From Escherichia coli (GTDB lineage: Bacteria > Pseudomonadota > Gammaproteobacteria > Enterobacterales > Enterobacteriaceae), in NCBI GenBank assembly GCA_025544715.1, contig GCA_025544715.1_4109.7: DNA of 10,467 nt. One strand, written 5' to 3'. The position numbers were made by a program, and so were the translations under genes. The notes under the pieces were generated by a model. The model ran no database searches. It was not told the DNA's origin and saw only the letters and a list, made by a program, of their open reading frames with translations. Positions within the stretch are counted from its first letter, which is position 1. Each line of letters begins with the position of its first letter. Below are positions 1 to 10,467 of this stretch, piece after piece.

Positions 1-8
1 TCAATAGA

Positions 9-206
9 TTATTTTAACTTTTTTCTGTCATTGATTAATGCTTTCAGTACTATACTAATGATTTGCAATGATTCATCAATGACTATAAAATTATTTTCTT
101 TCATTAGATGATAGTTACCATTGATTGTATATTCTAATGAGTACTGTTTACGTTTAATTTTTGATAATGTTTCTATTTGTTTTTGTACTGATTTCATGCT
201 AATCAT
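9..206 (-). CDS. hypothetical small protein (65 aa), very AT-rich
   Basis: ORF track; ATG at 206 with weak SD (cAGGAcg ~10 nt upstream); no cassette promoter; visibly lower GC than neighbouring genes. Confidence 0.35.
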   Translation of the reverse strand: MISMKSVQKQIETLSKIKRKQYSLEYTINGNYHLMKENNFIVIDESLQIISIVLKALINDRKKLK

Positions 207-279
207 TGTTAAACGTCCTGTAACGCATTCTAACGAGATAAACGGTTTAGTACTGGCATTGTATAGGGTAAATGATTAA

Positions 280-305
280 AGCCCACCAGCGTTAACCAGT
301 GGGCT
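280..305 (-). terminator. possible intrinsic terminator
   Basis: hairpin AGCCCAC..GTGGGCT followed on the minus strand by a partly U-rich tail (CUUUAAUCAUUU); weaker than the two canonical copies. Confidence 0.35.
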
Positions 306-311
306 ATAATC

Positions 312-455
312 TTACATCTTGCGGATAATCTTAACAGTATCTTTCACCGATTTACCGTCTTGCTGGCATTGCTCGATCATCGCGTATTGTTCTGCGGTCA
401 GATCTTCGCCAGTTTTAGCCAATACTGCATCGATGAATGAATCCAGTGCGATCAT
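312..455 (-). CDS. hypothetical protein (47 aa, MIALDSFIDAVLAKTGEDLTAEQYAMIEQCQQDGKSVKDTVKIIRKM)
   Basis: Translated by hand (below ORF-track cutoff); ATG 455 preceded by AAGAGAGAAA purine tract and sigma70-like promoter at 500-527; stop TAA 312-314; hairpin 280-305 downstream. Confidence 0.5.
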   Translation of the reverse strand: MIALDSFIDAVLAKTGEDLTAEQYAMIEQCQQDGKSVKDTVKIIRKM

Positions 456-499
456 TTTGTTTCTCTCTTAGGTTAAGTTAACTACTGTTTATAAAACTT

Positions 500-527
500 A
501 TTATACAGTACTATCAAACATTGTCAA
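500..527 (-). promoter_or_regulatory. sigma70-like early promoter, no stem-loop
   Basis: minus strand TTGACA (522-527), 16 nt spacer with AGTACT, TGTATAAT (-10 at 500-505). Confidence 0.6.
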
Positions 528-554
528 TAGATTTAATAGTACTGGTAATATATT

Positions 555-734
555 TTAGCGGTAATCGTCGTATGCTTTATTAACCTGGCGAATGTAACTT
601 TCAAAGGCTTCGTCTACCGTTTCATACTCCCGAACATAATCACCATAGGAAACCACATACATCCCTTTTTGTTCTTCAAACGTCATGATGATAGAATCCA
701 GGCCGATGATTTCAGTTTTTGCGATAATAGCCAT
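555..734 (-). CDS. hypothetical protein (59 aa; track ORF 555..803 trimmed to MAIIAKTEI...)
   Basis: ATG 734 has SD AAGGAAT 9 nt upstream and lies downstream of promoter -10 (775-780)/-35 (798-803); the track's longer start at 803 is upstream of the -35 and has no SD. Confidence 0.5.
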   Translation of the reverse strand: MAIIAKTEIIGLDSIIMTFEEQKGMYVVSYGDYVREYETVDEAFESYIRQVNKAYDDYR

Positions 735-774
735 TTTAGTATTCCTTAAATTAATATGTTGTCTTGATGTAGGT

Positions 775-803
775 ATTATGCCAGTACTATCAAACGTTGT
801 CAA
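775..803 (-). promoter_or_regulatory. sigma70-like early promoter (variant cassette without GGGGAG hairpin)
   Basis: TTGACA (798-803), 17 nt, CATAAT (775-780); near-identical copy at 3918-3946. Confidence 0.55.
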
Positions 804-822
804 TAGTACTGTGATAATATTT

Positions 823-1035
823 TTAGTTAATGATAGTCAGTGTAAAATTGTAATCCCCTGCCTGGTATAGTACTTTATCGCCGAACGTGCCGACACGTTT
901 CATATTGCAATAGATACCCATAACATTTTTTACATCTTTGATATTCCGAACGCCAGTGATATCCTTGTTGAAATTTTCATGATCAGAAAATAAAACTTGT
1001 TTTGCATTTTTCAGTACAGTGCGGATATTAGCCAT
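823..1035 (-). CDS. hypothetical protein (70 aa, MANIRTV...)
   Basis: ORF track; ATG 1035 directly after cassette stem-loop 1061-1080 and purine-rich SD; stop lies in upstream tract of next promoter. Confidence 0.6.
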   Translation of the reverse strand: MANIRTVLKNAKQVLFSDHENFNKDITGVRNIKDVKNVMGIYCNMKRVGTFGDKVLYQAGDYNFTLTIIN

Positions 1036-1060
1036 TTTGTTTTCTCTCTCTTTGTTAGTA

Positions 1061-1125
1061 GGGAAGTACTAATACTTCCCGTGCCTTGATGTAAACTATT
1101 ATACAGTACTAAAAACTATTGTCAA
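1061..1125 (-). promoter_or_regulatory. promoter + 5' UTR stem-loop cassette
   Basis: TTGACA 1120-1125, 16 nt, TATAAT 1098-1103; stem-loop GGGAAGTA/TACTTCCC 1061-1080. Confidence 0.65.
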
Positions 1126-1133
1126 ACTATTTT

Positions 1134-1334
1134 TTAAATTTTTTTCCATTTCATTTGCCCGGCCGGACGCTGAGCAATAGGAATAAACATATTGCTAATA
1201 TTACTGATATAACCTACCTGGAGATCACGCTGACTACCATACGCCCGACTTGCTGCATTTTTTGCCCCGCGTTCTGAATCGTATACGCCGTTAGATACTG
1301 AAAAACCTACTACACCGAAAGTGAATTGTTTCAT
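1134..1334 (-). CDS. hypothetical protein (66 aa, MKQFTFGVVGFS...)
   Basis: ORF track; ATG 1334 after stem-loop 1356-1374 and SD; stop TAA inside TTTTTTAA tract of cassette at 1120-1140. Confidence 0.6.
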   Translation of the reverse strand: MKQFTFGVVGFSVSNGVYDSERGAKNAASRAYGSQRDLQVGYISNISNMFIPIAQRPAGQMKWKKI

Positions 1335-1355
1335 TTTATATCTCTCTTTGTTAGT

Positions 1356-1414
1356 GGGGAGAACTATTCTCCCCTTGATGTAAACTATTATACAGTACTA
1401 TAAACTATTGTCAA
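1356..1414 (-). promoter_or_regulatory. promoter + 5' UTR stem-loop cassette
   Basis: TTGACA 1409-1414, 16 nt, TATAAT 1387-1392; stem-loop GGGGAGAA/TTCTCCCC 1356-1374. Confidence 0.65.
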
Positions 1415-1428
1415 ACTATTTTTTAATA

Positions 1429-1770
1429 TTATTCAAAATCTTCTGGACCGGACTGATAATCATCTTCACCGTATGCACTTTCTAACTTCTCGCCAGTGTG
1501 ATCATCAGTTAGTGAGTCATCCTCATAGTTCACGTCTACGCCCGTGATGTAAAACTGGCTATCGTCTGGATCATTGAAATTAATTTTCTGAATGTTTACA
1601 ATAACGGTATTGATGCCCAGGACACCGCCATCAGCAGTTACAAAGTACTGATATTTTTCACAACCGCCTGAATTGAAACCGTAATTGATTTCGGCCCGAC
1701 CATCATTTAAACGCAGTGCCTGAGCGATGATTTCGTTTTCAAAGTTAGATTGAGCAATTGCAATAGTCAT
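1429..1770 (-). CDS. hypothetical protein, acidic C-terminus (113 aa; track ORF trimmed to MTIAIAQSNF...)
   Basis: ATG 1770 with SD AAGGAAA 7 nt upstream, immediately downstream of stem-loop 1790-1808 and promoter (-10 1822-1827, -35 1844-1849); the track start at 1863 lies upstream of the promoter. Confidence 0.6.
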   Translation of the reverse strand: MTIAIAQSNFENEIIAQALRLNDGRAEINYGFNSGGCEKYQYFVTADGGVLGINTVIVNIQKINFNDPDDSQFYITGVDVNYEDDSLTDDHTGEKLESAYGEDDYQSGPEDFE

Positions 1771-1789
1771 GATTCGTTTCCTTATTACC

Positions 1790-1849
1790 AGGGGAAACCG
1801 TTTCCCCTCTCGATATAAAACATTATACGCGAATTGAGATAGTATGCAA
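1790..1849 (-). promoter_or_regulatory. promoter + 5' UTR stem-loop cassette
   Basis: TTGCAT 1844-1849, 16 nt, TATAAT 1822-1827; stem-loop AGGGGAA/TTCCCCT 1790-1808. Confidence 0.6.
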
Positions 1850-1903
1850 GTACTTTTTATCAAATACTTTAAAATAGTTTTCAGTACTCAAAGATTATAC
1901 AAT

Positions 1904-1947
1904 AGATACACTCCTGCACCCTGTGGGCTAGTGAGCTATCTCTCAAT
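1904..1947 (-). ncRNA. conserved element copy 1 (candidate small RNA or 5' leader)
   Basis: minus-sense GAGATAGCTCACTAGCCCACAGGGTGCAGGAGTGTATCT behind promoter 1954-1982; alignable with plus copy 6581-6618. Confidence 0.25.
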
Positions 1948-1953
1948 GAATAT

Positions 1954-1982
1954 ATAATAGCAAAATGGCTGACCGAAGTCAA
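1954..1982 (-). promoter_or_regulatory. sigma70-like promoter driving conserved element copy 1
   Basis: minus strand TTGACT (1977-1982), 17 nt, TATTAT (1954-1959); lies directly downstream of the stop at 1992. Confidence 0.4.
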
Positions 1983-1991
1983 CCACTTTTT

Positions 1992-2129
1992 TCATTTATT
2001 TTTAGCTTTTAGAATCGCCGCCTTTCGCGTCATGCCTTGCTTGATGTACTCCTTTACTTTCGCTTTACGTGCTTTCGCTTTATCTGCTTTCGTTTTAGGA
2101 GTACTGTAAATTATACCGTTAGGATTCAT
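1992..2129 (-). CDS. small Lys/Ala-rich basic protein (45 aa, MNPNGIIYSTPKTKADKAKARKAKVKEYIKQGMTRKAAILKAKNK)
   Basis: Translated by hand; ATG 2129 immediately follows the TAA of the upstream 29-aa ORF (TAAATG); GGTGA 6 nt upstream; stop TGA 1992-1994. Confidence 0.4.
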   Translation of the reverse strand: MNPNGIIYSTPKTKADKAKARKAKVKEYIKQGMTRKAAILKAKNK

Positions 2130-2219
2130 TTAAATCACCATAAAGAATAGATAGGTTACTAACAACGCCGCGATCAATGCACCGATCACCGCCGAACTGT
2201 AATAAGCCAATGATTTCAT
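2130..2219 (-). CDS. hydrophobic 29-aa peptide, predicted single transmembrane helix (MKSLAYYSSAVIGALIAALLVTYLFFMVI)
   Basis: Translated by hand; ATG overlaps the TGA of the upstream gene in an ATGA arrangement (translational coupling); uninterrupted hydrophobic core; no own SD. Confidence 0.35.
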   Translation of the reverse strand: MKSLAYYSSAVIGALIAALLVTYLFFMVI

Positions 2220-2368
2220 TTTTTAGCCTGAAAGTAATGTTTAATTTGTGCGGCGGTCAGTGCACAATTACGCAGGAAGTTTTCTGTATAACTGCGACGA
2301 GTACTGAAAGAGAATTGACCTTTGCCGTTACCGATAGTAACATCAAACCGAGCGTTGTATTGTTTCAT
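2216..2368 (-). CDS. hypothetical protein (50 aa; track ORF trimmed to MKQYNARFDV...)
   Basis: ATG 2368 with strong SD AGGAGA, downstream of stem-loop 2387-2406 and promoter (-10 2419-2424, -35 2441-2446). Confidence 0.55.
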   Translation of the reverse strand: MKQYNARFDVTIGNGKGQFSFSTRRSYTENFLRNCALTAAQIKHYFQAKK

Positions 2369-2386
2369 TTTGTTTCTCCTGTTATT

Positions 2387-2446
2387 GGGGAGAATCATTT
2401 CTCCCCTTCATGTAAAACATTATACAGTACTAAAAACTAATTGCAA
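2387..2446 (-). promoter_or_regulatory. promoter + 5' UTR stem-loop cassette
   Basis: TTGCAA 2441-2446, 16 nt, TATAAT 2419-2424; stem-loop GGGGAGAA/TTCTCCCC 2387-2406. Confidence 0.65.
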
Positions 2447-2449
2447 GTA

Positions 2450-2596
2450 CTATTTTTTAGATTTACGCAAACTTTCTACCATCTCAGGAGTAAGGCCAGG
2501 CGGGTAGGAAACCACTTCATCAACGAAACGTAAAGGGAATACCCCAGCGAAAGGTGAACATGCTTTCTTAGTATTACTCTTTTTTGATGCTTTCAT
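2450..2596 (-). CDS. small basic protein (48 aa, MKASKKSNTKKACSPFAGVFPLRFVDEVVSYPPGLTPEMVESLRKSKK)
   Basis: Translated by hand; ATG 2596 with SD AAGGAAT ~8 nt upstream, after stem-loop 2616-2635; stop TAG 2450-2452 abuts -35 of the next cassette. Confidence 0.5.
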   Translation of the reverse strand: MKASKKSNTKKACSPFAGVFPLRFVDEVVSYPPGLTPEMVESLRKSKK

Positions 2597-2615
2597 TTCA
2601 TATTCCTTAATTAGT

Positions 2616-2675
2616 GGGGAGAATCATTTCTCCCCTTCATGTAAAACATTATACAGTACTGAAAACTAATTGCAA
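2616..2675 (-). promoter_or_regulatory. promoter + 5' UTR stem-loop cassette
   Basis: TTGCAA 2670-2675, 16 nt, TATAAT 2648-2653; stem-loop 2616-2635, identical in sequence to the one at 2387-2406. Confidence 0.65.
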
Positions 2676-2875
2676 GTACTTTCTGAAAGTAAATGCTCAT
2701 AAGCTGCATTGACTACATTTTCAATAACCGACTGTACAGGAAGATCCCCCACGTCCTGGCTATAGTAGAAATCGCTTACAGTGGTGTTATCGTATGCAAA
2801 TACTTTACCAGGTACGGCATCAATCACATACATATTAACCTTTAAGATGTCGATTTTATCCTGTACAGTAAGCAT
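2666..2875 (-). CDS. hypothetical protein (69 aa)
   Basis: ORF track; ATG 2875 is 5 nt after the stop of 2881..3138 (operon partner); last codons and stop read through the spacer and -35 of cassette 2616-2675. Confidence 0.55.
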   Translation of the reverse strand: MLTVQDKIDILKVNMYVIDAVPGKVFAYDNTTVSDFYYSQDVGDLPVQSVIENVVNAAYEHLLSESTCN

Positions 2876-2880
2876 ATTAA

Positions 2881-3138
2881 TTAACCTTTTAAGTACTGGC
2901 TTAAGTAGTCTTGTTGATCTTCGGTGGTTGCCGCCATCTTCCCTAGTACTGGATTGATGATATAATCCTGATCCGCCTTATCAGTACTAGCAACCGGACG
3001 GATACGGGCCATTTCCTGGGCTTGTTCCACACTGTAACGCTCATAAAGGCGGCATTCTTCCGGTGTTAGCATTGCATCAATACGTTTCATTGGTTTAATG
3101 ATGCTTTCAACTTCATTGAGTACTTGATTAACGTTCAT
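2881..3138 (-). CDS. hypothetical protein (85 aa)
   Basis: ORF track; GGGGA SD 8 nt upstream of ATG 3138; no own cassette promoter, likely co-transcribed with 3190..3459; contains four AGTACT sites in three frames. Confidence 0.6.
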   Translation of the reverse strand: MNVNQVLNEVESIIKPMKRIDAMLTPEECRLYERYSVEQAQEMARIRPVASTDKADQDYIINPVLGKMAATTEDQQDYLSQYLKG

Positions 3139-3189
3139 GGTATAATCCCCAATATAAGCGGCCTAAATCAACCGCTAACGATGTTTTGA

Positions 3190-3459
3190 TTAATAGGTGT
3201 AGGGTTGACGCTCAAACAATGATTGCACGTTGTACGCCCCGCTAATGGGCTTCGCTGTCAAATCAATTTTATATTGTTCACGCTTAAAGATAATAAAACG
3301 ACAATTGTTCTTAACATCAAAATTGATTGAACGTTCCAGGAGTTTACCATCGTGCACAAATACAAGATAACCGCTCGCTACTTGTTTTGTAGTACTGGTT
3401 GCAACCATAGACCGACGAACATGTGTACCTGCATCGATTAAAGTACTGATATTTTTCAT
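3190..3459 (-). CDS. hypothetical protein (89 aa)
   Basis: ORF track; strong SD AAGAGGA 9 nt upstream of ATG 3459; preceded by a distinct stem-loop (3498-3526). Confidence 0.6.
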   Translation of the reverse strand: MKNISTLIDAGTHVRRSMVATSTTKQVASGYLVFVHDGKLLERSINFDVKNNCRFIIFKREQYKIDLTAKPISGAYNVQSLFERQPYTY

Positions 3460-3497
3460 TATACTATCCTCTTAAGTTAGTTTAATTTCTTTCCCCT

Positions 3498-3534
3498 ATG
3501 CAGACACTATATCAAAGTATCTGCATAAAGTAAA
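3498..3534 (-). promoter_or_regulatory. possible weak promoter plus distinct 5' stem-loop for operon 3459->2666
   Basis: minus strand TTTACT (3529-3534), 17 nt, TATAGT (3506-3511); inverted repeat ATGCAGA/TCTGCAT 3498-3526; not the cassette type. Confidence 0.3.
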
Positions 3535-3539
3535 GCTAA

Positions 3540-3884
3540 TTAAAGATCTTTTTTGCGTTTAACATCAGTTACCGAACTGTAAACAGTGATATTATTGTCA
3601 CGGCAAAAACGTGAAAGGTATGATCCGCGTGTAAACTCCTTCCCTTCCATATCAATAACCTTGCTAAATTCTTCCATTGCTACGGTGTCAAAGTGATCCC
3701 CATAACCATATTGGAACGGCACGTTTACCACTTCAATAAAATTACCATCGATTTCAACGTCTACACTTAAAGAAAAATAAGTGTTACCATATGAAGCCTG
3801 GAACCAACGCCGAGCGGCAATATGTACAACTTCAACAGAAGACAGGTTGATATTTTGTGCAGCGATGGTGTTGATGTTAGCCAT
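3540..3884 (-). CDS. hypothetical protein (114 aa, MANINTIAAQ...)
   Basis: ORF track; SD AAGAGGAAA; hairpin-less cassette promoter 3918-3946. Confidence 0.65.
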   Translation of the reverse strand: MANINTIAAQNINLSSVEVVHIAARRWFQASYGNTYFSLSVDVEIDGNFIEVVNVPFQYGYGDHFDTVAMEEFSKVIDMEGKEFTRGSYLSRFCRDNNITVYSSVTDVKRKKDL

Positions 3885-3917
3885 TTTTGTTTCCTCTTAG
3901 TTGTCTTGATAAAATCT

Positions 3918-3946
3918 ATTATGCCAGTACTATCAAACTATGTCAA
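3918..3946 (-). promoter_or_regulatory. sigma70-like early promoter (variant cassette without GGGGAG hairpin)
   Basis: TTGACA 3941-3946, 17 nt, CATAAT 3918-3923; near-identical to 775-803. Confidence 0.6.
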
Positions 3947-3965
3947 TAGTACTGTGATAATAATT

Positions 3966-4109
3966 TTACTTACTTTTTGCTTTCTTTACAGCTTCCACCT
4001 GGTCGGCCCACTCTTTACCCCATACTTGAGCGTTATAGTGATACTGACAAAGAGCAACGCCCCGTTTCAAACCAGTAATAGATTTTTTACCACATTGACA
4101 AGTTTTCAT
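3966..4109 (-). CDS. small Cys/His-containing protein, possible zinc-binding (47 aa, MKTCQCGKKSITGLKRGVALCQYHYNAQVWGKEWADQVEAVKKAKSK)
   Basis: Translated by hand; ATG 4109 with SD AAGAGGAAA after stem-loop 4128-4147; C-x-C ... C-x2-H spacing. Confidence 0.5.
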   Translation of the reverse strand: MKTCQCGKKSITGLKRGVALCQYHYNAQVWGKEWADQVEAVKKAKSK

Positions 4110-4127
4110 TTTTAGTTTCCTCTTAGT

Positions 4128-4187
4128 GGGGAGAACCATTTCTCCCCTTGATGTAATGTATTATACTTTATCTGACTTACTTTGCAA
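4128..4187 (-). promoter_or_regulatory. promoter + 5' UTR stem-loop cassette
   Basis: TTGCAA 4182-4187, 16 nt, TATAAT 4160-4165; stem-loop GGGGAGAA/TTCTCCCC 4128-4147. Confidence 0.65.
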
Positions 4188-4194
4188 GTACTTT

Positions 4195-4422
4195 TTAGTT
4201 TAATTCATCCAGGCATAAGATACGATCTACGCCGAGATCCGTTAAGCTAATGGTTGGCACTTGATAGGTTTCAATGTATTCTACACTAGCCCACTGACCG
4301 AACTCATTCACCGCCCAGGTATTCATTGCAAAATGTAATTCCGCACCTTTCTTATTAGTAATTACAGCAACAGTAGAAGAAGTGCCAGTAGTACCAGTTA
4401 CATAAGCGATTACGATAGCCAT
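4195..4422 (-). CDS. hypothetical protein (75 aa)
   Basis: ORF track; SD AGGAAT; promoter -10 4456-4461, -35 4479-4484. Confidence 0.6.
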   Translation of the reverse strand: MAIVIAYVTGTTGTSSTVAVITNKKGAELHFAMNTWAVNEFGQWASVEYIETYQVPTISLTDLGVDRILCLDELN

Positions 4423-4455
4423 TGTTTTGATTCCTATTCAGTAGTTGATGTATGT

Positions 4456-4484
4456 ATTATGTCAGTACTTAAAACTATTGTCAA
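4456..4484 (-). promoter_or_regulatory. sigma70-like early promoter, no stem-loop
   Basis: TTGACA 4479-4484, 17 nt, CATAAT 4456-4461. Confidence 0.55.
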
Positions 4485-4492
4485 ACTATTTT

Positions 4493-4645
4493 TTAAAGTT
4501 TATCAATGATTGATGCCGTTTCATTGATAGTCTTGCCGTGTTTTGCACACGCAATAACTGCTTTAAATTCCTTTGATGACCAATCTTTCTTGCTGCATAC
4601 TGACATTACTTGTAACGTGAAACAATCCAGTTCATAAGTATTCAT
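4493..4645 (-). CDS. hypothetical protein (50 aa, MNTYELDCFTLQVMSVCSKKDWSSKEFKAVIACAKHGKTINETASIIDKL)
   Basis: Translated by hand; ATG 4645 with SD GAGGA 8 nt upstream; cassette 4666-4718; stop TAA inside TTTTTTAAA tract of next cassette. Confidence 0.5.
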   Translation of the reverse strand: MNTYELDCFTLQVMSVCSKKDWSSKEFKAVIACAKHGKTINETASIIDKL

Positions 4646-4665
4646 CTTTATATCCTCAGTTAGTT

Positions 4666-4718
4666 AAGGTGTTTCGCCTTGATGTAATTAATTATACGCT
4701 AATCTCTTAATCGTGCAA
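4666..4718 (-). promoter_or_regulatory. promoter + weak 5' stem-loop
   Basis: TTGCAC 4713-4718, 16 nt, TATAAT 4691-4696; short hairpin AAGGTG/CGCCTT 4666-4680. Confidence 0.55.
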
Positions 4719-4825
4719 GTACTTTTTATTAGTTTTTATAAAATACTTTCTACGCCCTCAATCGCATTCTAACGACCATAACGCCACCAGCTAGGGCGAT
4801 GTATCAGATAATCAGTTTAATGCGT

Positions 4826-4839
4826 TAGAATCGATTCTA
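4826..4839. repeat. 14-bp perfect palindrome TAGAATCGATTCTA in a non-coding spacer
   Basis: self-complementary; overlaps an inverted copy of the TTCTAACG motif. Confidence 0.8.
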
Positions 4840-4871
4840 GGCGGTGCTAGTGGACTGGAATACTATAGACA

Positions 4872-4899
4872 CAAAAAAGCCCACTGTTTATAGTGGGCT
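4872..4899 (-). terminator. Rho-independent terminator
   Basis: minus strand AGCCCACT-ATAAAC-AGTGGGCT followed by UUUUUUGU; preceded by AGTACTGAATCA. Confidence 0.7.
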
Positions 4900-4920
4900 A
4901 GTGATTCAGTACTTTAATTG

Positions 4921-5554: not shown

Positions 5555-5608
5555 CTACTTTTTTAAAACTATTTTCAAAGTATTCTAGTACTACAATCCT
5601 ACAATAAC

Positions 5609-5635
5609 AAAAAAGCCCACTGCTTATAGTGGGCT
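5609..5635 (-). terminator. Rho-independent terminator (near-identical copy of the 4872-4899 module)
   Basis: AGCCCACT-ATAAGC-AGTGGGCT followed by UUUUUUGUUAUUG; preceded by AGTACTGAATCA. Confidence 0.7.
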
Positions 5636-5652
5636 AGTGATTCAGTACTAGA

Positions 5653-5952
5653 TTATAAACAGTTAATTACTCCTGTATGCGTTACTTTCTCCGTATCCAT
5701 GACAGTGACAGAACCACGTTTAGCACTGGCATCATAATAAATTGTTGTGCTACCTTTATCATCTTCTTCATGGAACGGGCCGTTTTTAAATGCTTCCGGC
5801 TGCAATTCCAGATCCTTTAAAACAATCTCGCCTGTACTTTCATTGGTCATTGCTACTGTGCACTGAATGAATTTATCACTACTCACATCTAACGATGCGT
5901 TAACAGCGAAAGAGGAAACAGATAAAGCCAGGGCGATGATTGCAATTTTCAT
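5653..5952 (-). CDS. predicted secreted/periplasmic protein with N-terminal signal peptide (99 aa, MKIAIIALALSVSSFAVNA|S...)
   Basis: ORF track; hydrophobic N-terminus with AxA-like cleavage motif; its promoter cassette lies across the N gap at 6127-6186; terminator 5609-5635 downstream. Confidence 0.6.
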   Translation of the reverse strand: MKIAIIALALSVSSFAVNASLDVSSDKFIQCTVAMTNESTGEIVLKDLELQPEAFKNGPFHEEDDKGSTTIYYDASAKRGSVTVMDTEKVTHTGVINCL

Positions 5953-6110
5953 TTGNNNNNNNNNNNNNNNNNNNNNNNNNNNNNNNNNNNNNNNNNNNNN
6001 NNNNNNNNNNNNNNNNNNNNNNNNNNNNNNNNNNNNNNNNNNNNNNNNNNNNNGTTAACAGCGAAAGAGGAAACAGATAAAGCCAGGGCGATGATTGCAA
6101 TTTTCATTTG
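5899..6110. repeat. exact 57-bp direct duplication flanking the N gap (5899-5955 = 6054-6110)
   Basis: identical strings GTTAACAGCGAAAGAGGAAACAGATAAAGCCAGGGCGATGATTGCAATTTTCATTTG on both sides; most likely overlapping contig ends, so the true sequence probably joins 5955 to 6111. Confidence 0.8.
5956..6053. other. 98-nt run of N (assembly or scaffold gap)
   Basis: unbroken N run; both flanks are an identical 57-bp sequence. Confidence 0.95.
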
Positions 6111-6126
6111 ATTATCCTTAGTTACC

Positions 6127-6186
6127 AGGGGGAACCTCTCCCCCTTGCGATGTAAAATATTATACAGTACTAAAAACTATTATCAA
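6127..6186 (-). promoter_or_regulatory. promoter + 5' UTR stem-loop cassette (serves the gene across the N gap)
   Basis: TTGATA 6181-6186, 16 nt, TATAAT 6159-6164; stem-loop AGGGGGA/TCCCCCT 6127-6145. Confidence 0.6.
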
Positions 6187-6191
6187 GTACT

Positions 6192-6428
6192 TTATGATTT
6201 TTTATAAAACATTTCAGCAGTGATATTTTTACCCGTTGGCTGTACTTTATCCAGAATTTTTTGATGCCCTGGAAGTCCAAATGAATATGATCCGTAAACC
6301 GTAAACCAGTAGTTACCCTCAGTGTTTACATGTACAGCACAATAGGGAACGCCCCGCGATTCATCACCAATAAAGTGTGATACCGTTCCCGTTACATTAG
6401 CAGACGTTGATTTGATTTGTTCAAGCAT
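6192..6428 (-). CDS. hypothetical protein (78 aa)
   Basis: ORF track; SD AAGGAAT; cassette with stem-loop 6449-6467, -10 6477-6482, -35 6499-6504. Confidence 0.6.
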   Translation of the reverse strand: MLEQIKSTSANVTGTVSHFIGDESRGVPYCAVHVNTEGNYWFTVYGSYSFGLPGHQKILDKVQPTGKNITAEMFYKKS

Positions 6429-6448
6429 TTTCTTATTCCTTAGTTACC

Positions 6449-6504
6449 AGGGGGAACCGCTCCCCCTATGCAAAACATTATACGCGTTTAAAAACTAATA
6501 GCAA
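6449..6504 (-). promoter_or_regulatory. promoter + 5' UTR stem-loop cassette
   Basis: TTGCTA 6499-6504, 16 nt, TATAAT 6477-6482; stem-loop AGGGGGA/TCCCCCT 6449-6467. Confidence 0.6.
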
Positions 6505-6537
6505 GTATTTTAATAAAAAGTATTTGAAAAATAATTG

Positions 6538-6566
6538 TTGACAACTGCATCCAGTACTGGCATAAT
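6538..6566 (+). promoter_or_regulatory. plus-strand sigma70-like promoter, divergent from the 6449-6504 cassette
   Basis: TTGACA 6538-6543, 17 nt spacer containing AGTACT, CATAAT 6561-6566; no plus-strand ORF downstream. Confidence 0.5.
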
Positions 6567-6572
6567 TACTAC

Positions 6573-6680
6573 ATAAAGACGAGATAGTCACTAACCCACC
6601 GGGTGCATAGATCCGTCTATTAAATGATTCAGTACTGAAAAAGTAACGGGGAGTTATTATCTCCCCGCGTTGTTATTTGG
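6573..6680 (+). ncRNA. candidate small non-coding RNA (~105 nt) of the conserved-element family
   Basis: own promoter 6538-6566, conserved element 6581-6618, palindrome TTCAGTACTGAA 6628-6639, terminator hairpin 6647-6667 with U tract; longest ATG ORF is 4 codons. Confidence 0.35.
6647..6680. terminator. bidirectional intrinsic terminator
   Basis: CGGGGAG-TTATTAT-CTCCCCG hairpin; U-rich on the plus side (GUUGUUAUUU) and on the minus side (UUACUUUUUC); ends both the plus small transcript and minus gene 6673..6894. Confidence 0.6.
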
Positions 6681-6894
6681 TAAGGTATAAACAGAAGTCA
6701 CCTTTATTTGCTACGCCGCCAGTGTAACGCGATGAATAGTTAGAAACGTCCTGGACTTCTGCTATTACCAGTGTATCATCATTCAATTCGTCGCAGAAGC
6801 AAACGGCTGGATCTTTTACGCCGATCTTGTCGGCATGTTCCCGCATAGATTTAACCAGTGCTTCCAGTTGAGAAAGAGTAGTGATATTAGCCAT
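6673..6894 (-). CDS. hypothetical protein (73 aa; track ORF trimmed to MANITTLSQ...)
   Basis: ATG 6894 with SD GAGGAAA downstream of stem-loop 6914-6931; the track start at 6924 lies inside the stem-loop; bidirectional terminator 6647-6667 just after the stop. Confidence 0.6.
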   Translation of the reverse strand: MANITTLSQLEALVKSMREHADKIGVKDPAVCFCDELNDDTLVIAEVQDVSNYSSRYTGGVANKGDFCLYLTK

Positions 6895-6913
6895 TGTATT
6901 TTCCTCATTACCA

Positions 6914-6972
6914 GGGAGAACCATTTCTCCCCTCTATGTAAACTATTATACAGTACTGGAAACTAATTGCAA
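6914..6972 (-). promoter_or_regulatory. promoter + 5' UTR stem-loop cassette
   Basis: TTGCAA 6967-6972, 16 nt, TATAAT 6945-6950; stem-loop GGGAGAA/TTCTCCC 6914-6931. Confidence 0.65.
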
Positions 6973-6980
6973 GTACTTTT

Positions 6981-7184
6981 TTAATTTAATTGCTTTAAAA
7001 CATACTCAAAGACACCACGCACATCATTGATCATCGCCTGGCGGTTAGCAGGTAACGCACCAAGATCGCCACTATCCCAGGCATTGATAAAACTCCCCAA
7101 ATCATGATAGATTTTATTCTGTAAGCCGATCAACTGTAATTCTTTTTCTTCAAGCTCTTTAATACGGTCGATTAAAAGACTCAT
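6981..7184 (-). CDS. hypothetical protein (67 aa; trimmed to MSLLIDRIKELEE...)
   Basis: ATG 7184 with SD GAGGA; 17 nt after the stop of 7202..7489; shares a 20-nt RBS/start module with that gene. Confidence 0.5.
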   Translation of the reverse strand: MSLLIDRIKELEEKELQLIGLQNKIYHDLGSFINAWDSGDLGALPANRQAMINDVRGVFEYVLKQLN

Positions 7185-7201
7185 TAGATAATCCTCAGTA
7201 C

Positions 7202-7489
7202 TTAATTGTAAGATCCGCAACGGTTACAATAGTGCCCGTCTTCCTCGTCATCGTCAACGAATTGACTAACGAAATTATCTACTTTCTCTTTGAGATTCTG
7301 ATAATTGTTTTCTACTTCCTTTAAACGTTCCTGGTAGTATTCCAGTGCTTGCACATACGCCGCCTCAGCCGTTTTAGCTCTTAAGGCTAAATTCATGCCA
7401 CGCGTTTCATCGTACATCCAAAAGCCATCGGTGCACTCACTGATTGACAATGATTTGGTTAACACTTTATAGTCAATTACTTTGCTCAT
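7202..7489 (-). CDS. hypothetical protein with C-terminal C-x2-C (95 aa; trimmed to MSKVIDYK...)
   Basis: ATG 7489 with SD GAGGA 9 nt upstream; the track start at 7528 lies inside the hairpin 7508-7526; no own promoter, likely co-transcribed with 7546..7785. Confidence 0.55.
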   Translation of the reverse strand: MSKVIDYKVLTKSLSISECTDGFWMYDETRGMNLALRAKTAEAAYVQALEYYQERLKEVENNYQNLKEKVDNFVSQFVDDDEEDGHYCNRCGSYN

Positions 7490-7507
7490 TAGATAATCCT
7501 CAGTAAA

Positions 7508-7526
7508 GGCGGGAACCACACCCGCC
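7508..7526 (-). terminator. intercistronic GC hairpin (attenuator or processing site?)
   Basis: GGCGGG-AACCACA-CCCGCC between stop at 7546 and ATG at 7489; followed by UUUACU on the minus strand; preceded by the 14-bp palindrome 7531-7544. Confidence 0.3.
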
Positions 7527-7530
7527 ATTG

Positions 7531-7544
7531 ATTCAGTACTGAAT
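7531..7544. repeat. 14-bp perfect palindrome ATTCAGTACTGAAT
   Basis: self-complementary; related copies TGATTCAGTACT at 4902-4913, 5638-5649, 6625-6636 and in reverse at 10171-10185. Confidence 0.8.
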
Positions 7545-7545
7545 G

Positions 7546-7785
7546 TTACATTCCAACCATTGCAGCACGGATCGCCGTAGTGCTATACTTGAATCCGTCC
7601 GGCGTTGTAGTAGTACCGTTGGCTTTTAATCTGCGGTACATACATTGGGCCGCAATATCTTTAGTTTTACATTGTGCGATGCAACTTTGAGCAAGCCGAT
7701 ATAATGACTCACCGTTATTAATCCACAATGAAACATTCCAATGAGTTTTGTTTTTGTGCCCGTTGTAAGTTTTAGTACTAGCCAT
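7546..7785 (-). CDS. hypothetical protein, paralog of 9143..9382 (79 aa)
   Basis: ORF track; SD GAGGA; cassette 7808-7869; shares GHKNKTHWNVSLWINN and an identical C-terminal 19 aa with 9143..9382. Confidence 0.65.
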   Translation of the reverse strand: MASTKTYNGHKNKTHWNVSLWINNGESLYRLAQSCIAQCKTKDIAAQCMYRRLKANGTTTTPDGFKYSTTAIRAAMVGM

Positions 7786-7807
7786 TTTTAAATCCTCGTT
7801 TGATTGA

Positions 7808-7869
7808 GCAGGGGAACCATTCCCCCGCCTCGATATAAAGTATTATACGCCGTTAAACTTAGTTTGCAA
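7808..7869 (-). promoter_or_regulatory. promoter + 5' UTR stem-loop cassette
   Basis: TTGCAA 7864-7869, 16 nt, TATAAT 7842-7847; stem-loop 7808-7828. Confidence 0.65.
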
Positions 7870-7882
7870 GTACTTTTTTAAA

Positions 7883-8494
7883 TTAATATTCGATTGATTC
7901 TACTACGCCATCAATCACATTGAATTGATATTCGTTACCCTCGATCAGTGCTACGATGTTTTCAGTAGTGAATTGATCCTCATATGCATTCTCTAAATCA
8001 CGGTACAACTTGCGTGACAATTCACGAATAGTATCAGTGAGTAGTTCCTCAAGCTCATTAACTAACGTTTCTTGTTTTGCGGTTAAATCAGTGTAAGCCG
8101 ATTCAATGTACCCGCTTACAGTATTCTCATGCGAGTAGCGAGAGTGAGAACGCTTTACACTCATTGCCAAATCATCTTCATTCAGCAGGTGACGGATTGA
8201 GCGATACTTAGTTAACGCCTTAACCTTGCGTAAAAACTTCACTGCGTCAACGTGGTCAGTACTGATTGATGCACCGTCACCTTGCGACCAAAAACCACTG
8301 AATTGCAATTCCGCGTCAGTAATACCATACTCCGGCAACAATGTTTCTTTATAGTATTCATATACGCCCTCAGAAAAGAAATCATCACCGCTTGAACGTT
8401 CCCGATCCCGAACCAGTTCGATAGCTGACGTTTGTTGTTCTGCGTTCAATTCAGAAAAAGCCATAACATAAGTAGTAGTAGTGATAGTTTTCAT
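7883..8494 (-). CDS. hypothetical acidic protein (203 aa), largest ORF in the window
   Basis: ORF track; SD GAGGG 9 nt upstream of ATG 8494; promoter -10 8527-8532, -35 8549-8554, with a second complete cassette further upstream. Confidence 0.7.
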   Translation of the reverse strand: MKTITTTTYVMAFSELNAEQQTSAIELVRDRERSSGDDFFSEGVYEYYKETLLPEYGITDAELQFSGFWSQGDGASISTDHVDAVKFLRKVKALTKYRSIRHLLNEDDLAMSVKRSHSRYSHENTVSGYIESAYTDLTAKQETLVNELEELLTDTIRELSRKLYRDLENAYEDQFTTENIVALIEGNEYQFNVIDGVVESIEY

Positions 8495-8526
8495 TTTGTA
8501 ACCCTCATTCAGTAGTTGATGTAAGT

Positions 8527-8554
8527 ATTATACGCTTTTAAAAACAATTGTCAA
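8527..8554 (-). promoter_or_regulatory. sigma70-like early promoter, no stem-loop
   Basis: TTGACA 8549-8554, 16 nt, TATAAT 8527-8532. Confidence 0.55.
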
Positions 8555-8603
8555 ACTATTTTATCAGGGGAGTTTTTCGTAAGTCTTACTCCTGGACTAC
8601 TTA

Positions 8604-8671
8604 ACGGGGAGTTACTTATTCATTCCCCGTCCTGATGTAAAACATTATACGCCTTTAAACATAGTTTGCAA
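8604..8671 (-). promoter_or_regulatory. orphan promoter + stem-loop cassette with no ORF of its own (tandem with 8527-8554)
   Basis: TTGCAA 8666-8671, 16 nt, TATAAT 8644-8649; stem-loop ACGGGGA/TCCCCGT 8604-8630; the next ATG-initiated ORF is only 5 codons. Confidence 0.5.
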
Positions 8672-8708
8672 GTACTTTTTAAAAAATAGTTTTAATCACT
8701 TTTATATA

Positions 8709-8752
8709 GATACACTCCCGCACCCTATGGGCTATCGCCTTGTGTCCGGCTT
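8709..8752 (-). ncRNA. conserved element copy 4 (candidate small RNA or 5' leader)
   Basis: minus-sense ..GATAGCCCATAGGGTGCGGGAGTGTATCT behind promoter 8759-8787. Confidence 0.25.
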
Positions 8753-8758
8753 GTAAGT

Positions 8759-8787
8759 ATTATCTCACTAAGCCGGATAATGGTCAA
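8759..8787 (-). promoter_or_regulatory. sigma70-like promoter driving conserved element copy 4
   Basis: minus strand TTGACC (8782-8787), 17 nt, GATAAT (8759-8764). Confidence 0.35.
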
Positions 8788-8793
8788 GTACTT

Positions 8794-9060
8794 TTATTCA
8801 AGTACTGCAATCTTTTTAGTACTGTACACAGTAACACGGTTGCCCTTGCGGTCGTGCTTTATTTCTACCACGCGACGCGATACACTATCAGGACGCTTTA
8901 AAGCAGATAGCCAGTACTGAATAGATCGGGCTGTACTTCTCTTTACTACGGCCCAACGTTTACCACGTTCCGATTGTACGCCCATATCTTTAAACGTCGC
9001 CCCGTCCTGGCGTGCTGCAATCCGAGCAAGTTCACGCGTAGCAAAGTAAGTAATATTCAT
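8794..9060 (-). CDS. hypothetical basic protein (88 aa; trimmed to MNITYFATRELARIAARQ...)
   Basis: ATG 9060 with GGGG SD-like 9 nt upstream; the track start at 9114 lies upstream of the -10 (9097-9102). Confidence 0.5.
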   Translation of the reverse strand: MNITYFATRELARIAARQDGATFKDMGVQSERGKRWAVVKRSTARSIQYWLSALKRPDSVSRRVVEIKHDRKGNRVTVYSTKKIAVLE

Positions 9061-9096
9061 GCTGATACCCCTATCGTTGTTGTATAAAAGAAATCT

Positions 9097-9121
9097 ATTA
9101 TAAAGTACTATCACCGTGCAA
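9097..9121 (-). promoter_or_regulatory. degenerate cassette promoter (spacer only 13 nt)
   Basis: TATAAT 9097-9102 and TTGCAC 9116-9121 are too close for a canonical sigma70 promoter; looks like a cassette with ~3 nt deleted from the spacer. Confidence 0.25.
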
Positions 9122-9142
9122 TAGTACTTTTAATCTATTCTC

Positions 9143-9382
9143 TTACATTCCAACCATTGCAGCACGGATCGCCGTAGTACTATACTTGAATCCGTCCGGT
9201 GTTTTATCTTGTCCAGTCTGTTCTAAAAATAGCATCATATGACGGGCCGCATCATTGCGATTAGTGTTAGCGGCAATAAAGTCCAGGGCCAACCGATATA
9301 ATGATTCATCATTATTAATCCAAAGGCTTACATTCCAATGAGTTTTATTTTTGTGACCTAAGAACATTTTTGATTTAGCCAT
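9143..9382 (-). CDS. hypothetical protein, paralog of 7546..7785 (79 aa)
   Basis: ORF track; SD GAGGA 9 nt upstream of ATG 9382; cassette 9406-9462; near-identical nucleotide sequence to 7546..7785 at both ends. Confidence 0.65.
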   Translation of the reverse strand: MAKSKMFLGHKNKTHWNVSLWINNDESLYRLALDFIAANTNRNDAARHMMLFLEQTGQDKTPDGFKYSTTAIRAAMVGM

Positions 9383-9405
9383 TTTAAAATCCTCTGAATT
9401 ATGGC

Positions 9406-9462
9406 GGGGAACTATTCCCCACCTGATAGAAAGTATTATACATTAATCGAATTACTTTGCAA
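9406..9462 (-). promoter_or_regulatory. promoter + 5' UTR stem-loop cassette
   Basis: TTGCAA 9457-9462, 16 nt, TATAAT 9435-9440; stem-loop GGGGAA/TTCCCC 9406-9420. Confidence 0.65.
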
Positions 9463-9465
9463 GTA

Positions 9466-9657
9466 CTATTTTTTGCAATATTCGTAAATCTCTTTATATC
9501 CGCTTAGTACTACATCGCCCCGCTGCAATGTGATAGATTCGAAATCATCATGATTAACAGCGTTTAACCAGTTTAAAGCCTTCATCTTATTTGGGTATTT
9601 TTGTTCGTGCTGGTTTTCCCCATCAATCAACCAGTACTGTATAATTATCTCACGCAT
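9466..9657 (-). CDS. hypothetical protein (63 aa)
   Basis: ORF track; AAGGG SD; 11 nt after the stop of 9669..10031 (operon partner); stop TAG just upstream of the next cassette -35. Confidence 0.55.
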   Translation of the reverse strand: MREIIIQYWLIDGENQHEQKYPNKMKALNWLNAVNHDDFESITLQRGDVVLSGYKEIYEYCKK

Positions 9658-9668
9658 ACATATTACCC

Positions 9669-10031
9669 TTATTCGTAAATCTTGCCACTGTCAGCCCATA
9701 CCAGGAAACGCGGCATATTATCCCATGCATCTTGTTTCAAGTTTAAACCGTGTAATACTTCGGTACTTTCCATTCCTGGTACTGGTTTACTATACACCGC
9801 AAACATTTCGCCCATGTACTGATAAGCCATCGTTAAATCACTGGCGATCATCTTATGGATCATCGCATCAAGCATCACAGTAGCGGCGTATTGTTCACGC
9901 TTAAGCGGTAACATTTTAATAAGTTCCCGATAAGCTGAAATATGAATTTTTACAGTCTCAGCGGGGAGATCTTTCATCTCTTCACGAAAGTTAACCAGGT
10001 TAGCAATGATTTTAGTGATTTGAGTCGCCAT
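9669..10031 (-). CDS. hypothetical protein (120 aa)
   Basis: ORF track; ATG 10031 downstream of imperfect stem-loop 10052-10076 and promoter (-10 TAGAAT 10087-10092, -35 TTGCAA 10109-10114). Confidence 0.65.
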   Translation of the reverse strand: MATQITKIIANLVNFREEMKDLPAETVKIHISAYRELIKMLPLKREQYAATVMLDAMIHKMIASDLTMAYQYMGEMFAVYSKPVPGMESTEVLHGLNLKQDAWDNMPRFLVWADSGKIYE

Positions 10032-10051
10032 CGTTTTAATCTCTTAAAAGT

Positions 10052-10114
10052 GAGTCGGGAGCGTATCCCCCGTCTCGATGTAAAACATTCTACACCTTTC
10101 CCAATACGTTGCAA
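10052..10114 (-). promoter_or_regulatory. promoter + imperfect 5' stem-loop
   Basis: TTGCAA 10109-10114, 16 nt, TAGAAT 10087-10092; imperfect hairpin 10052-10076. Confidence 0.55.
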
Positions 10115-10348
10115 GTACTTTCTACAAATACTTTTAAAATAGTTTTCTTTCTATATAGGAGTACTATCATCCAGTACTGAATCAATCAAGGGAGTACAAT
10201 TATTCAGTACTATACCGTAAAACGGCCTCAGTCGCTTTCTAACGCATTAATACACCTAAGCTATACATTTGCACCACTCCCAACAATCCAGGGCGTTACA
10301 GGCCGTTTAAACGCGTTAAATTATTTTCAATTATTTTGTTTTTAGCTA

Positions 10349-10376
10349 TTGACTCAGTACAGAAAAAGCGTATAAT
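10349..10376 (+). promoter_or_regulatory. plus-strand sigma70-like promoter driving conserved element copy 3
   Basis: TTGACT 10349-10354, 16 nt, TATAAT 10371-10376; transcript start ATTACTACATAGACG.. matches that of the 6538-6566 promoter. Confidence 0.5.
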
Positions 10377-10382
10377 TACTAC

Positions 10383-10428
10383 ATAGACGCGAGAAAGCGG
10401 ATACCCCAGGGGGTGCCGAGATCCGTCC
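10383..10428 (+). ncRNA. candidate small RNA, conserved element copy 3 (3' end undefined)
   Basis: own promoter 10349-10376; element GAGAAAGCGGATACCCCAGGGGGTGCCGAGATCCGTCC 10391-10428 alignable with 6581-6618. Confidence 0.3.
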
Positions 10429-10467
10429 AAAATTCATAAAATTTAAAAAGGATACACTCCCGCACCT

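Follow-up and report, generated by a model that had tools for sequence, protein, structure and literature searches.

AGTACT, a putative signature word of enterobacterial RaK2/121Q-type jumbo phages, in early promoters and throughout the genome

The closest known counterpart of the sequence word described here is HIP1 (GCGATCGC) of cyanobacteria. HIP1 and the alternate HIPs are hyper-abundant short palindromes, present about once per gene and in all frames of coding DNA, which are lineage-specific, are kept by selection rather than by ancestry, show a bias of their one-off variants towards the outer positions and have a function that is still unexplained (PMC5861425, PMC4390886). The same features, with selection seen in the maintained density more clearly than in the conservation of individual sites, recur for the palindrome AGTACT, the subject of this study, in a stretch of 10,467 nucleotides (hereafter the window, at its full length) of the Escherichia coli assembly GCA_025544715.1 (contig GCA_025544715.1_4109.7) and in the genomes of related jumbo phages; in phage 121Q it is the top-ranked hexamer genome-wide and is in excess within genes irrespective of frame. 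It differs from HIP1 in being a hexamer with AT-rich ends, in residing in a viral genome otherwise cleared of palindromes and in the extent of its enrichment, which in 121Q reaches 9-fold (hexamer) and 44-fold (8-mer), compared with 15-300-fold for HIP1. An association with cognate methyltransferases is described for HIP words (PMC4390886), whereas a link between AGTACT and the methyltransferases of 121Q is only putative. Two features of AGTACT, its register in promoters and a zone in which a one-strand word takes its place, find no mention for HIP1 in the abstracts of the two reports on it (PMC5861425, PMC4390886).

Individual features of AGTACT are also found in other described systems. Chi (GCTGGTGG, RecBCD) and KOPS (FtsK) are likewise density-type signals in coding DNA whose positions turn over at a maintained density, and their strand specificity has a parallel in the AGTACA zone described below. 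They are, however, asymmetric everywhere and replication-skewed, whereas the main form of AGTACT is a perfect palindrome with symmetric flanks, and strand specificity is confined to the AGTACA zone. The SlmA-binding sequence (SBS) of E. coli, GTGAGTACTCAC, has the same central hexamer, is palindromic, has a similar host range and is read by a dimer, as is proposed here for AGTACT; the phage word lacks the required outer positions of the SBS, disfavours the purine at position 3 and is not an SBS. Among phage proteins, TF1 of SPO1 selects phage DNA and has preferred sites in early promoters, and a single factor for both tasks is likewise proposed here for AGTACT, although TF1 discriminates via hydroxymethyluracil and not via a sequence word. 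The gene organisation of the window resembles the promoter-early stem-loop (PeSL) cassettes of T4-type phages (PMC2839356), in which small ORFans also stand behind a repeated strong sigma-70 promoter and a hairpin in a plastic region. The stem-loop of PeSL cassettes lies upstream of the promoter, as terminator of the preceding unit, whereas the hairpin in the window lies downstream of it, between the -10 hexamer and the ribosome-binding site, in the 5' untranslated region (UTR), and an AGTACT-type word pervading the remaining genome forms no part of the PeSL descriptions. A literature search, mostly outside subscription journals and including the genome papers of RaK2, CBB and PA5oct, found no report linking AGTACT or any over-represented palindrome to these phages, and a search on CAGTACTG returned primer sequences only.

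Phage genomes are textbook cases of palindrome avoidance. In one clade this avoidance is at its limit, yet a single palindrome ranks first among the words of the genome, and protein sequences have measurably paid for it. The reading favoured here, which is held tentatively, takes AGTACT, preferentially as (C)AGTACT(G), for a genomic signature word specific to the enterobacterial jumbo phages of the RaK2/121Q type, kept by selection at the DNA level and recognised by a clade-specific dimeric reader of duplex DNA. The sequence-specific reader implied would matter greatly to phages whose 350-kb genomes are unmodified, and it could bring a new activity that binds, modifies or nicks DNA; activities of this sort have in the past yielded tools as well as insight into phage self/host discrimination. 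A small, fast and genetically tractable system with the same phenomenon may also help with the 30-year-old HIP1 problem.

AGTACT in the window, the 121Q genome and related phages

The window is identified by its sequence as the early-gene region of an Asteriusvirus (121Q/PBECO4 group), a genus of E. coli jumbo phages; its best megablast match is vB_EcoM_CRJP21 (91% identity over 78% of the window), and its coverage by relatives is piecewise and ranges from 36 to 78%. A first-pass annotation of the window had estimated some 61 copies of AGTACT against three to four expected. The exact count is 61, at agreeing coordinates, against a mean of 2.84 (sd 1.67, maximum 8) in dinucleotide-preserving shuffles. 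AGTACT ranks first among the hexamers of the window, the runner-up having 30 copies, and its excess over expectation is far above that of any other 6-bp palindrome; the next palindromes by count are TTTAAA (25 copies) and TTGCAA (17). Of the 61 sites, 16 adjoin a -35 hexamer or closely precede it, promoter spacers hold 11, other intergenic or gene-edge positions account for 13, and the remaining 21 fall within unique coding sequence, where every codon phase is represented. The division into about 21 copies in promoter cassettes and about 40 outside them, proposed earlier, becomes one into 27 and 34. The four copies noted in the gene at 2881..3138 do occupy three codon phases (2, 0, 2 and 1), and both tight clusters are real, at 10160-10211 as described and at 8787-8823 for the one placed at 8789-8824. 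The extended forms that were said to be common number nine copies of CAGTACTG and two of TTCAGTACTGAA.

The first-pass annotation had called for a codon-preserving null and had held that the excess would be spurious if the count fell within codon- and dinucleotide-preserving expectation, or if all excess copies belonged to the repeated cassettes. When every protein sequence and the pooled codon usage of the window are preserved (2000 trials), 5.34±2.08 sites (maximum 13) are expected within coding sequences and 22 are observed, a count that takes in the site at 2675, which also abuts a -35 hexamer. The observed number thus lies beyond both the dinucleotide and the codon nulls, and copies outside the cassettes occur in unique coding DNA. 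Third- and fourth-order Markov models raise the expectation for the window to 21 and 51, respectively, because AGTAC and GTACT occur almost solely within the motif; an explanation by higher-order composition was rejected as circular, since the sub-words consist of the motif itself.

Counts in the whole genome and in related phages, also proposed in that annotation, show the excess to be both genome-wide and clade-wide. In 121Q (NC_025447.1; 348,532 bp), to which all whole-genome counts refer, AGTACT occurs 903 times against about 100 expected, at a density of about one per 390 bp, and ranks first among all hexamers. Every 10-kb bin holds 11-65 copies, late structural and replication genes included, with the density of the early region higher by a factor of two to three. 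Called genes contain 736 copies against 214±12 in a per-gene synonymous shuffle, with an excess of 3.2- to 3.8-fold in each of the codon phases. Ser-Thr pairs are encoded by AGT-ACT codons in 360 of 687 cases, where codon usage predicts 102, and among the over-represented dipeptides of the 121Q proteome QY ranks first, ST second and VL sixth, these being the three reading frames of (C)AGTACT. The frame-independent excess, together with this dipeptide skew, therefore indicates selection at the nucleic-acid level that is strong enough to bend proteins.

The flanks of the 121Q sites are dyad-symmetric: position -1 is C in 44% of the copies and position +6 is G in 47%, whereas the reverse choices are disfavoured (G at -1 in 10%, C at +6 in 6%), and a weak TTTC...GAAA extension is slightly stronger in non-coding DNA. 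The 8-mer CAGTACTG is present in 194 copies against 4.4 expected, and GAGTACTC in three. Gaps between sites are near-Poisson (coefficient of variation 1.08) save for a peak at 18-23 bp that is due to the promoter pairs, and regular spacing or helical periodicity was rejected on this basis. Placement relative to gene starts or stops was discarded as well, the density along genes being nearly uniform but lower at ribosome-binding sites and gene ends, and the depletion in mobile nuclease genes that would be a sign of amelioration (11 copies against 15.3 expected) is not significant. The one-off neighbours of AGTACT are mildly enriched rather than depleted, most of all the outer-position variants, with AGTATT/AATACT at 1.24-fold. 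This fits a mutation-selection balance and not a conversion drive of the Vsr type, and biased repair of the Vsr/VSP type was rejected, the transition neighbours AGTATT/AATACT showing no depletion.

Other palindromes have been purged from the same genome. Zero copies are found in 121Q for 24 of the 64 six-base palindromes, of which up to 47 copies would be expected, and the tetramer GCGC is likewise absent where 178 are expected. The unrelated E. coli myovirus phi92 (FR775895.2, positions 1-35,452) has no AGTACT against 10.9 expected, and also lacks AAGCTT, CAGCTG and CTGCAG; AGTACT therefore seems normally to be a purged restriction target in this host range, the evidence of phi92 for restriction pressure on AGTACT in coliphages being indirect. 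A single 50-kb sample of E. coli K-12 contains three AGTACT, from which the density in 121Q is estimated at about 40 times that of the host.

The excess is restricted to phages of Escherichia, Salmonella, Klebsiella, Cronobacter and Yersinia (counts for three of these phages in Table 1; Pectobacterium phage CBB, of the same group, is left out of the counts). Among the IMG/VR relatives, ordered by the identity of their major capsid protein (MCP) to its 121Q counterpart, it is found in all those at 89% or above, is weaker at 72% and is absent from every relative at 69% or less. Pseudomonas phage PA5oct (4 copies against 13 expected) and Agrobacterium phage Atu_ph07 (3 against 5) show no excess, relatives of similar GC content are among those without it, and a search for alternative signature palindromes in the distant relatives that lack the excess found none. 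Between genera (about 72% nucleotide identity), 24-25% of the sites are positionally conserved against 17.5% of background hexamers; many sites are lineage-specific, and the density across genera stays 7-18-fold. Within Asteriusvirus, 76-89% of the sites are conserved against a background of 60-69%, the coding-only subsets not being significant. Maintenance of density is thus clear and conservation of individual sites weak, and a density that is kept despite the turnover of sites argues for selection and not conversion.

Promoter register and the one-strand AGTACA block

The window contains at least 20 repeated cassettes (e.g. at 2603-2697, 2374-2468, 6900-6994 and 4115-4209), each composed in order of a sigma-70 consensus promoter, a G/C-rich 5'-UTR hairpin (GGGGAGAAATGATTCTCCCC, predicted folding -13.6 to -15.9 kcal/mol) and a Shine-Dalgarno sequence; the repeat families D1-D6 of the window have 5-13 copies each. 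Where a promoter has twin copies of AGTACT (Table 1), these stand 19-22 bp apart, about two helical turns, on both sides of the -35 element; one copy (about -40..-35) overlaps the first T of the -35 hexamer, and the other lies at about -19..-14. At the promoter 2655..2680 the second copy (2655-2660) lies in the spacer and ends 1 nt ahead of TATAAT, with a start-to-start distance of 20 bp, and the upstream copy overlaps the final codons of the gene 2666..2875. The copies adjoining a -35 hexamer usually take the form AAAAGTACTTGCAA and the spacer copies the form ...AGTACTGTATAAT, and TTGCAAGTACT occurs eight times on the plus strand of the window. Some cassettes have ACGCGTTT in the spacer in place of CAGTACTG, and relatives swap the two versions at homologous positions. 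Among the sigma-70-like matches of 121Q, 31 of 66 have AGTACT abutting the -35 hexamer or in the spacer, and 16 of the 20 spacer copies end exactly 1 nt ahead of the -10 hexamer; in its early region AGTACT accompanies 24 of the 29 promoter-like matches. The same twin layout, AAAGTACTTGCAA...GAGTACTtTATAAT, recurs with different flanks in GAP32, a phage of another genus, and this conservation of the promoter register between genera was missed in the earlier reading of the window.

The deposited genome of CRJP21 (OQ708376.1) has a direct terminal repeat of about 20.15 kb (1-20,152 and 346,150-366,301), which is 100% identical over the 11.5 kb compared (the first 11.8 kb against 346,406-357,936). 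The homologue of the window (1,257-10,787) lies within this repeat, and the early genes are therefore diploid in CRJP21, as in T5-like genomes. The density of AGTACT in the repeat is 6.4 per kb.

The earlier reading also missed the replacement of the palindrome by AGTACA in a defined zone of the genome. The longest AGTACT-free gap in 121Q, from 161,800 to 169,384, holds 41 AGTACA against 3.6 expected, all of them on the gene-sense strand, and TGTACT is absent from it. These copies occur in all three phases and in unrelated contexts, with the same flank preferences as AGTACT. Homologous blocks in CRJP21, G17, TH47 and fEgEco12 (Table 1) are 78-96% identical to that of 121Q over the aligned block, and each of the five Asteriusviruses has 40-48 consecutive AGTACA and zero AGTACT over 7.2-8.6 kb, an agreement of independent isolates which shows that the block is not a sequencing artefact. 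When 121Q is compared with fEgEco12, 17 of 40 AGTACA copies are kept, 23 are lost and 18 are new, and AGTACT never appears instead; with gain and loss solely as AGTACA, it follows that AGTACA is selected and AGTACT counter-selected in the block. The genes of the block are Asteriusvirus-specific, domain searches of their proteins returned DUFs or nothing, and the GC/AT skew shows no clear change at the block. AGTACA outnumbers TGTACT 45:15 in the 30 kb that follow the block in 121Q (169-200 kb); in RaK2 (NC_019526.1; 244-300 kb) the zone past the early region gives 68:27 and 30:9, and elsewhere both genomes are symmetric. Between them, AGTACT and AGTACA offer an internal control.

Possible readers of the word

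From the usual depletion of short palindromes in phages, the first-pass annotation had argued that AGTACT is read by something, be it a DNA modification or protection enzyme, an architectural or transcription factor, or a replication or packaging signal. The enrichment against a palindrome purge bears out the general claim, while none of the readers listed is thereby identified or excluded. The evidence for a reader is also broader than was stated there: the word is genome-wide, frame-independent, dyad-symmetric in its flanks and clade-specific, and its whole-genome and whole-clade extent had been missed.

On these grounds AGTACT would be what a sequence-specific reader of duplex DNA recognises, a reader that the phage clade itself makes or carries. 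The likeliest reader would be a dimeric DNA-binding protein with one 5'-AGT half-site per arm. The promoter pairs would then act as operators, which when occupied would enclose the -35 element from both sides and serve as a switch of early transcription, in the simplest case for its shut-off, and the approximately 900 dispersed copies could let the same factor load on phage DNA rather than host DNA. The dispersed copies might also shield a restriction target that other coliphages purge, while AGTACA may represent a site with one half disabled, giving the reader or a partner polarity. Several points weigh against this proposal. Among the proteins of 121Q as annotated in RefSeq, none is labelled helix-turn-helix, TetR, ParB or restriction-type or is otherwise an obvious sequence-specific DNA binder, and a domain search of the window proteins returned two DUF7249 paralogues and weak matches to DUF1033 and DUF3846, none of them informative. 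The AGTACA block would not be expected if the operator were purely symmetric, and some 900 occupied sites within genes might hinder RNA polymerase. The promoter copies could reflect cassette duplication combined with the abundance of the word, although the conservation of the register in GAP32 argues against mere cassette duplication. Host range, lastly, is confounded with phylogeny, which leaves room for a host factor. A wider version of the proposal, possible but doubtful, is sequence-based self-marking, in which dedicated phage machinery would read both the palindromic word, present some 900 times, and the one-strand AGTACA past the terminal-repeat early region. Such machinery would couple the control of early promoters, the protection of unmodified DNA and a directional process, namely entry, replication or packaging.

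It seems rather unlikely that AGTACT is instead an HIP-like epigenetic word, the target of an orphan methyltransferase of the phage whose mark protects from restriction of the ScaI/Eco255I type; on this account the methylated word would have a further function or would spread via methylation-linked repair, as for HIP1. A genome purged of 24 palindromes could hardly tolerate about 900 restriction sites unshielded, but protection accounts for tolerance and not for a 9-fold enrichment. Two candidate enzymes are encoded by 121Q, methyltransferases of the C5 type (PF00145, gene 91) and the Dam family (PF05869), and the C5 enzyme is common to CBB (76% identity) and RaK2 (63%); however, a C5 homologue of 51% identity is encoded by phi92, whose 35 kb holds no AGTACT, and a gene pair of Dam-like methyltransferase and cytidyltransferase is also found in Atu_ph07, which lacks the excess. 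The DNA of RaK2 is refractory to many restriction enzymes, yet its bisulfite data point to CpG methylation and not to AGTACT (PMC3622015). HIP words co-occur with cognate methyltransferases, and their one-off variants show a bias to the outer positions (PMC4390886) that is seen here too. The deamination products AGTATT/AATACT are nonetheless not depleted (1.24-fold), and a Vsr-type drive is not in evidence.

An unlikely alternative is a polar single-strand signal of the Chi, KOPS or primase-start type, for which the palindrome would be the cheapest two-strand form in a 90%-coding genome and AGTACA the form used where one direction suffices. The AGTACA block of five phages, in which AGTACT never replaces AGTACA, would be expected of such a signal, as would the AGTACA:TGTACT skew downstream of the early region in 121Q and RaK2; outside this zone, however, AGTACA/TGTACT is no more enriched than other one-off neighbours, and the preference for G at +6 persists beside AGTACA, which better fits a duplex half-site. 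The near-Poisson spacing is that of density-type signals, and these phages accumulate Chi about 12-fold, but the fixed promoter register is left unexplained. The genes of the zone, moreover, are all on one strand, so that polarities of replication, entry and transcription are inseparable there, and a mirror-image TGTACT block, considered as a sign of a divergent origin, is weak, with 6 copies in 4 kb.

That an Enterobacterales DNA-binding protein such as the nucleoid-occlusion factor SlmA is recruited or titrated by the phage genome is improbable. The excess does track enterobacterial hosts and is absent in the relatives infecting Pseudomonas and Agrobacterium, but host DNA itself is poor in AGTACT. 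We know of no other E. coli factor of AGTACT specificity. SlmA was rejected as the reader: its site has an AGTACT core, and it requires G1, T2 and a purine at position 3 (PMC3020112), flanks that are absent and disfavoured in the phage. No match to GTRAGYRCTYAC is found in 121Q, 825 of the 903 sites lack either outer GT/AC flank, and the disfavour of G at -1 is seen in the three copies of GAGTACTC against 194 of CAGTACTG.

The absence of any function, with AGTACT as a by-product of amplified cassettes, codon or dipeptide preference or mutational bias, is barely credible: 27 of the 61 window copies are in repeated promoter cassettes and a fourth-order Markov model nearly reproduces the window count, but the 21 coding copies of the window and 736 of 121Q, in all phases, are far above the nulls that preserve proteins and codons, late structural genes are enriched too, one-off neighbours are not depleted, relatives of similar GC content show no excess and composition bias cannot yield AGTACT everywhere yet AGTACA alone in a block of equal composition, so that a promoter-cassette or codon artefact is ruled out by the shuffles, the genome-wide counts and the AGTACA block.

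Feature coordinates and other observations in the window

The 29 plausible genes of the window are all on the minus strand and form a row of small ORFans, each with a repeated promoter cassette in front. The positions of AGTACT relative to these genes and promoters are collected in Table 1, together with the blocks and counts in related phages. Several of the intergenic and gene-edge copies read TTCAGTACTGAATCA and lie just past a stop codon or ahead of a terminator, and the copy at 1065 sits within a 5'-UTR hairpin. The cluster at 8787-8823 is made up of the site at 8787 and copies from the 88-aa gene 8794..9060, while that at 10160..10211 is non-coding and lies near one end of the region in common with the terminal repeat of the relatives.

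Table 1. Positions of AGTACT and AGTACA in the window and in related phages. Coordinates are those of the window unless another genome is named.
Feature	Coordinates	Strand	Sites and remarks
Twin-site early promoter	2655..2680	minus	AGTACT 2675-2680 shares its last T with -35 TTGCAA
Twin-site early promoter	2426..2451	minus	2446, 2426; upstream copy overlaps the TAG stop of gene 2450..2596
Twin-site early promoter	6166..6191	minus	6186, 6166; -35-like element TTGATA
Twin-site early promoter	6952..6977	minus	6972, 6952; spacer copy is CAGTACTG
Twin-site promoter, TTGACA type	3926..3953	minus	3948, 3926, 22 bp apart; AGTACTATTGACA...AGTACTGGCATAAT; repeat family D12
Twin-site promoter	783..810	minus	805, 783; 93% identical to cassette 3926-3953 (D12)
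Twin-site promoter	9104..9128	minus	9123, 9104, 19 bp apart; AGTACTATTGCAC...AGTACTTTATAAT
Promoter	507..543	minus	spacer copy 507, farther upstream copy 538
Single copy abutting -35	10114..10119	minus	AGTACTTGCAA; likewise 9462, 8671, 7869, 4187
Single copy abutting variant -35			4718 (TTGCAC), 1849 (TTGCAT), 8787 (TTGACC)
Spacer-only copy	1105..1110	minus	TTGACA...AGTACTGTATAAT; likewise 1394, 4464 (D1)
Intergenic cluster, three copies	10160..10211		10160, 10173, 10206; upstream of the window's first promoter
12-bp palindrome TTCAGTACTGAA	7532..7543		just past a stop codon; second copy 6628-6639 (repeat family D11)
AGTACTGAATCA copies, related to TTCAGTACTGAA			ahead of terminators at 5644 and 4908
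Other intergenic and gene-edge copies			249 (249..254), 1065, 1883, 5587, 6553, 7197
85-aa gene, four copies	2881..3138	minus	2892, 2945, 2983, 3119; phases 1, 2, 0, 2
88-aa gene, three copies	8794..9060	minus	8801, 8818, 8913; phases 2, 0, 1
Remaining unique coding copies	46..9638		46, 140, 869, 1644, 2100, 2300, 3391, 3442, 4991, 7774, 8258, 9176, 9506, 9633; three phases
AGTACA block, 121Q	161,980-169,173	gene-sense	about 7.6 kb beyond the terminal-repeat end
Homologous blocks, four relatives	3181-10349, 2979-10377, 2373-10785, 938-9538		numbered within segments of the four relatives
Yersinia phage fHe-Yen9-04	late region		AGTACT 82 against 11 expected
Klebsiella phage RaK2	1-50 kb		AGTACT 119 against 12 expected
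Cronobacter phage GAP32	1-50 kb		AGTACT 253 against 14 expected

Positions 5956-6053 of the window are a run of 98 N, flanked by an exact duplication of 57 nt (5899-5955 and 6054-6110) that includes the start of the same gene. The run with its duplicated flanks is an unmerged assembly join and not biology, and the gene at the join is probably 5653..5952, driven by the promoter at 6166-6191.

One strand of 121Q has 18 copies of Chi and the other 11, where about 1.5 per strand are expected, an excess of about 12-fold; nine copies are in the early region, some of them inside terminator stems. The window has two copies (283-290 and 4784-4791), on the gene-sense strand. A second AGTACT-free stretch of 121Q, of 4.1 kb (155,502-159,569), contains no AGTAC at all and 6 TGTACT, and covers paralogous genes, each of about 70 aa, arranged in tandem.

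Scans of the window against Rfam and for tRNAs gave no matches. Two non-coding repeat families occur in its long intergenic regions, neither of them matched by Rfam: a 56-nt repeat (6562-6617 and 10372-10427) whose copies are 77% identical, and the GGGTGCGGGAGTGTATC element (1900-1930, 8700-8730 and 10450-10467). The two DUF7249 paralogues, of 79 aa each (7546-7785 and 9143-9382), agree closely at their 3' ends (95% identity over 64 nt), and one of them has AGTACT at the position where the other reads AGCACT.

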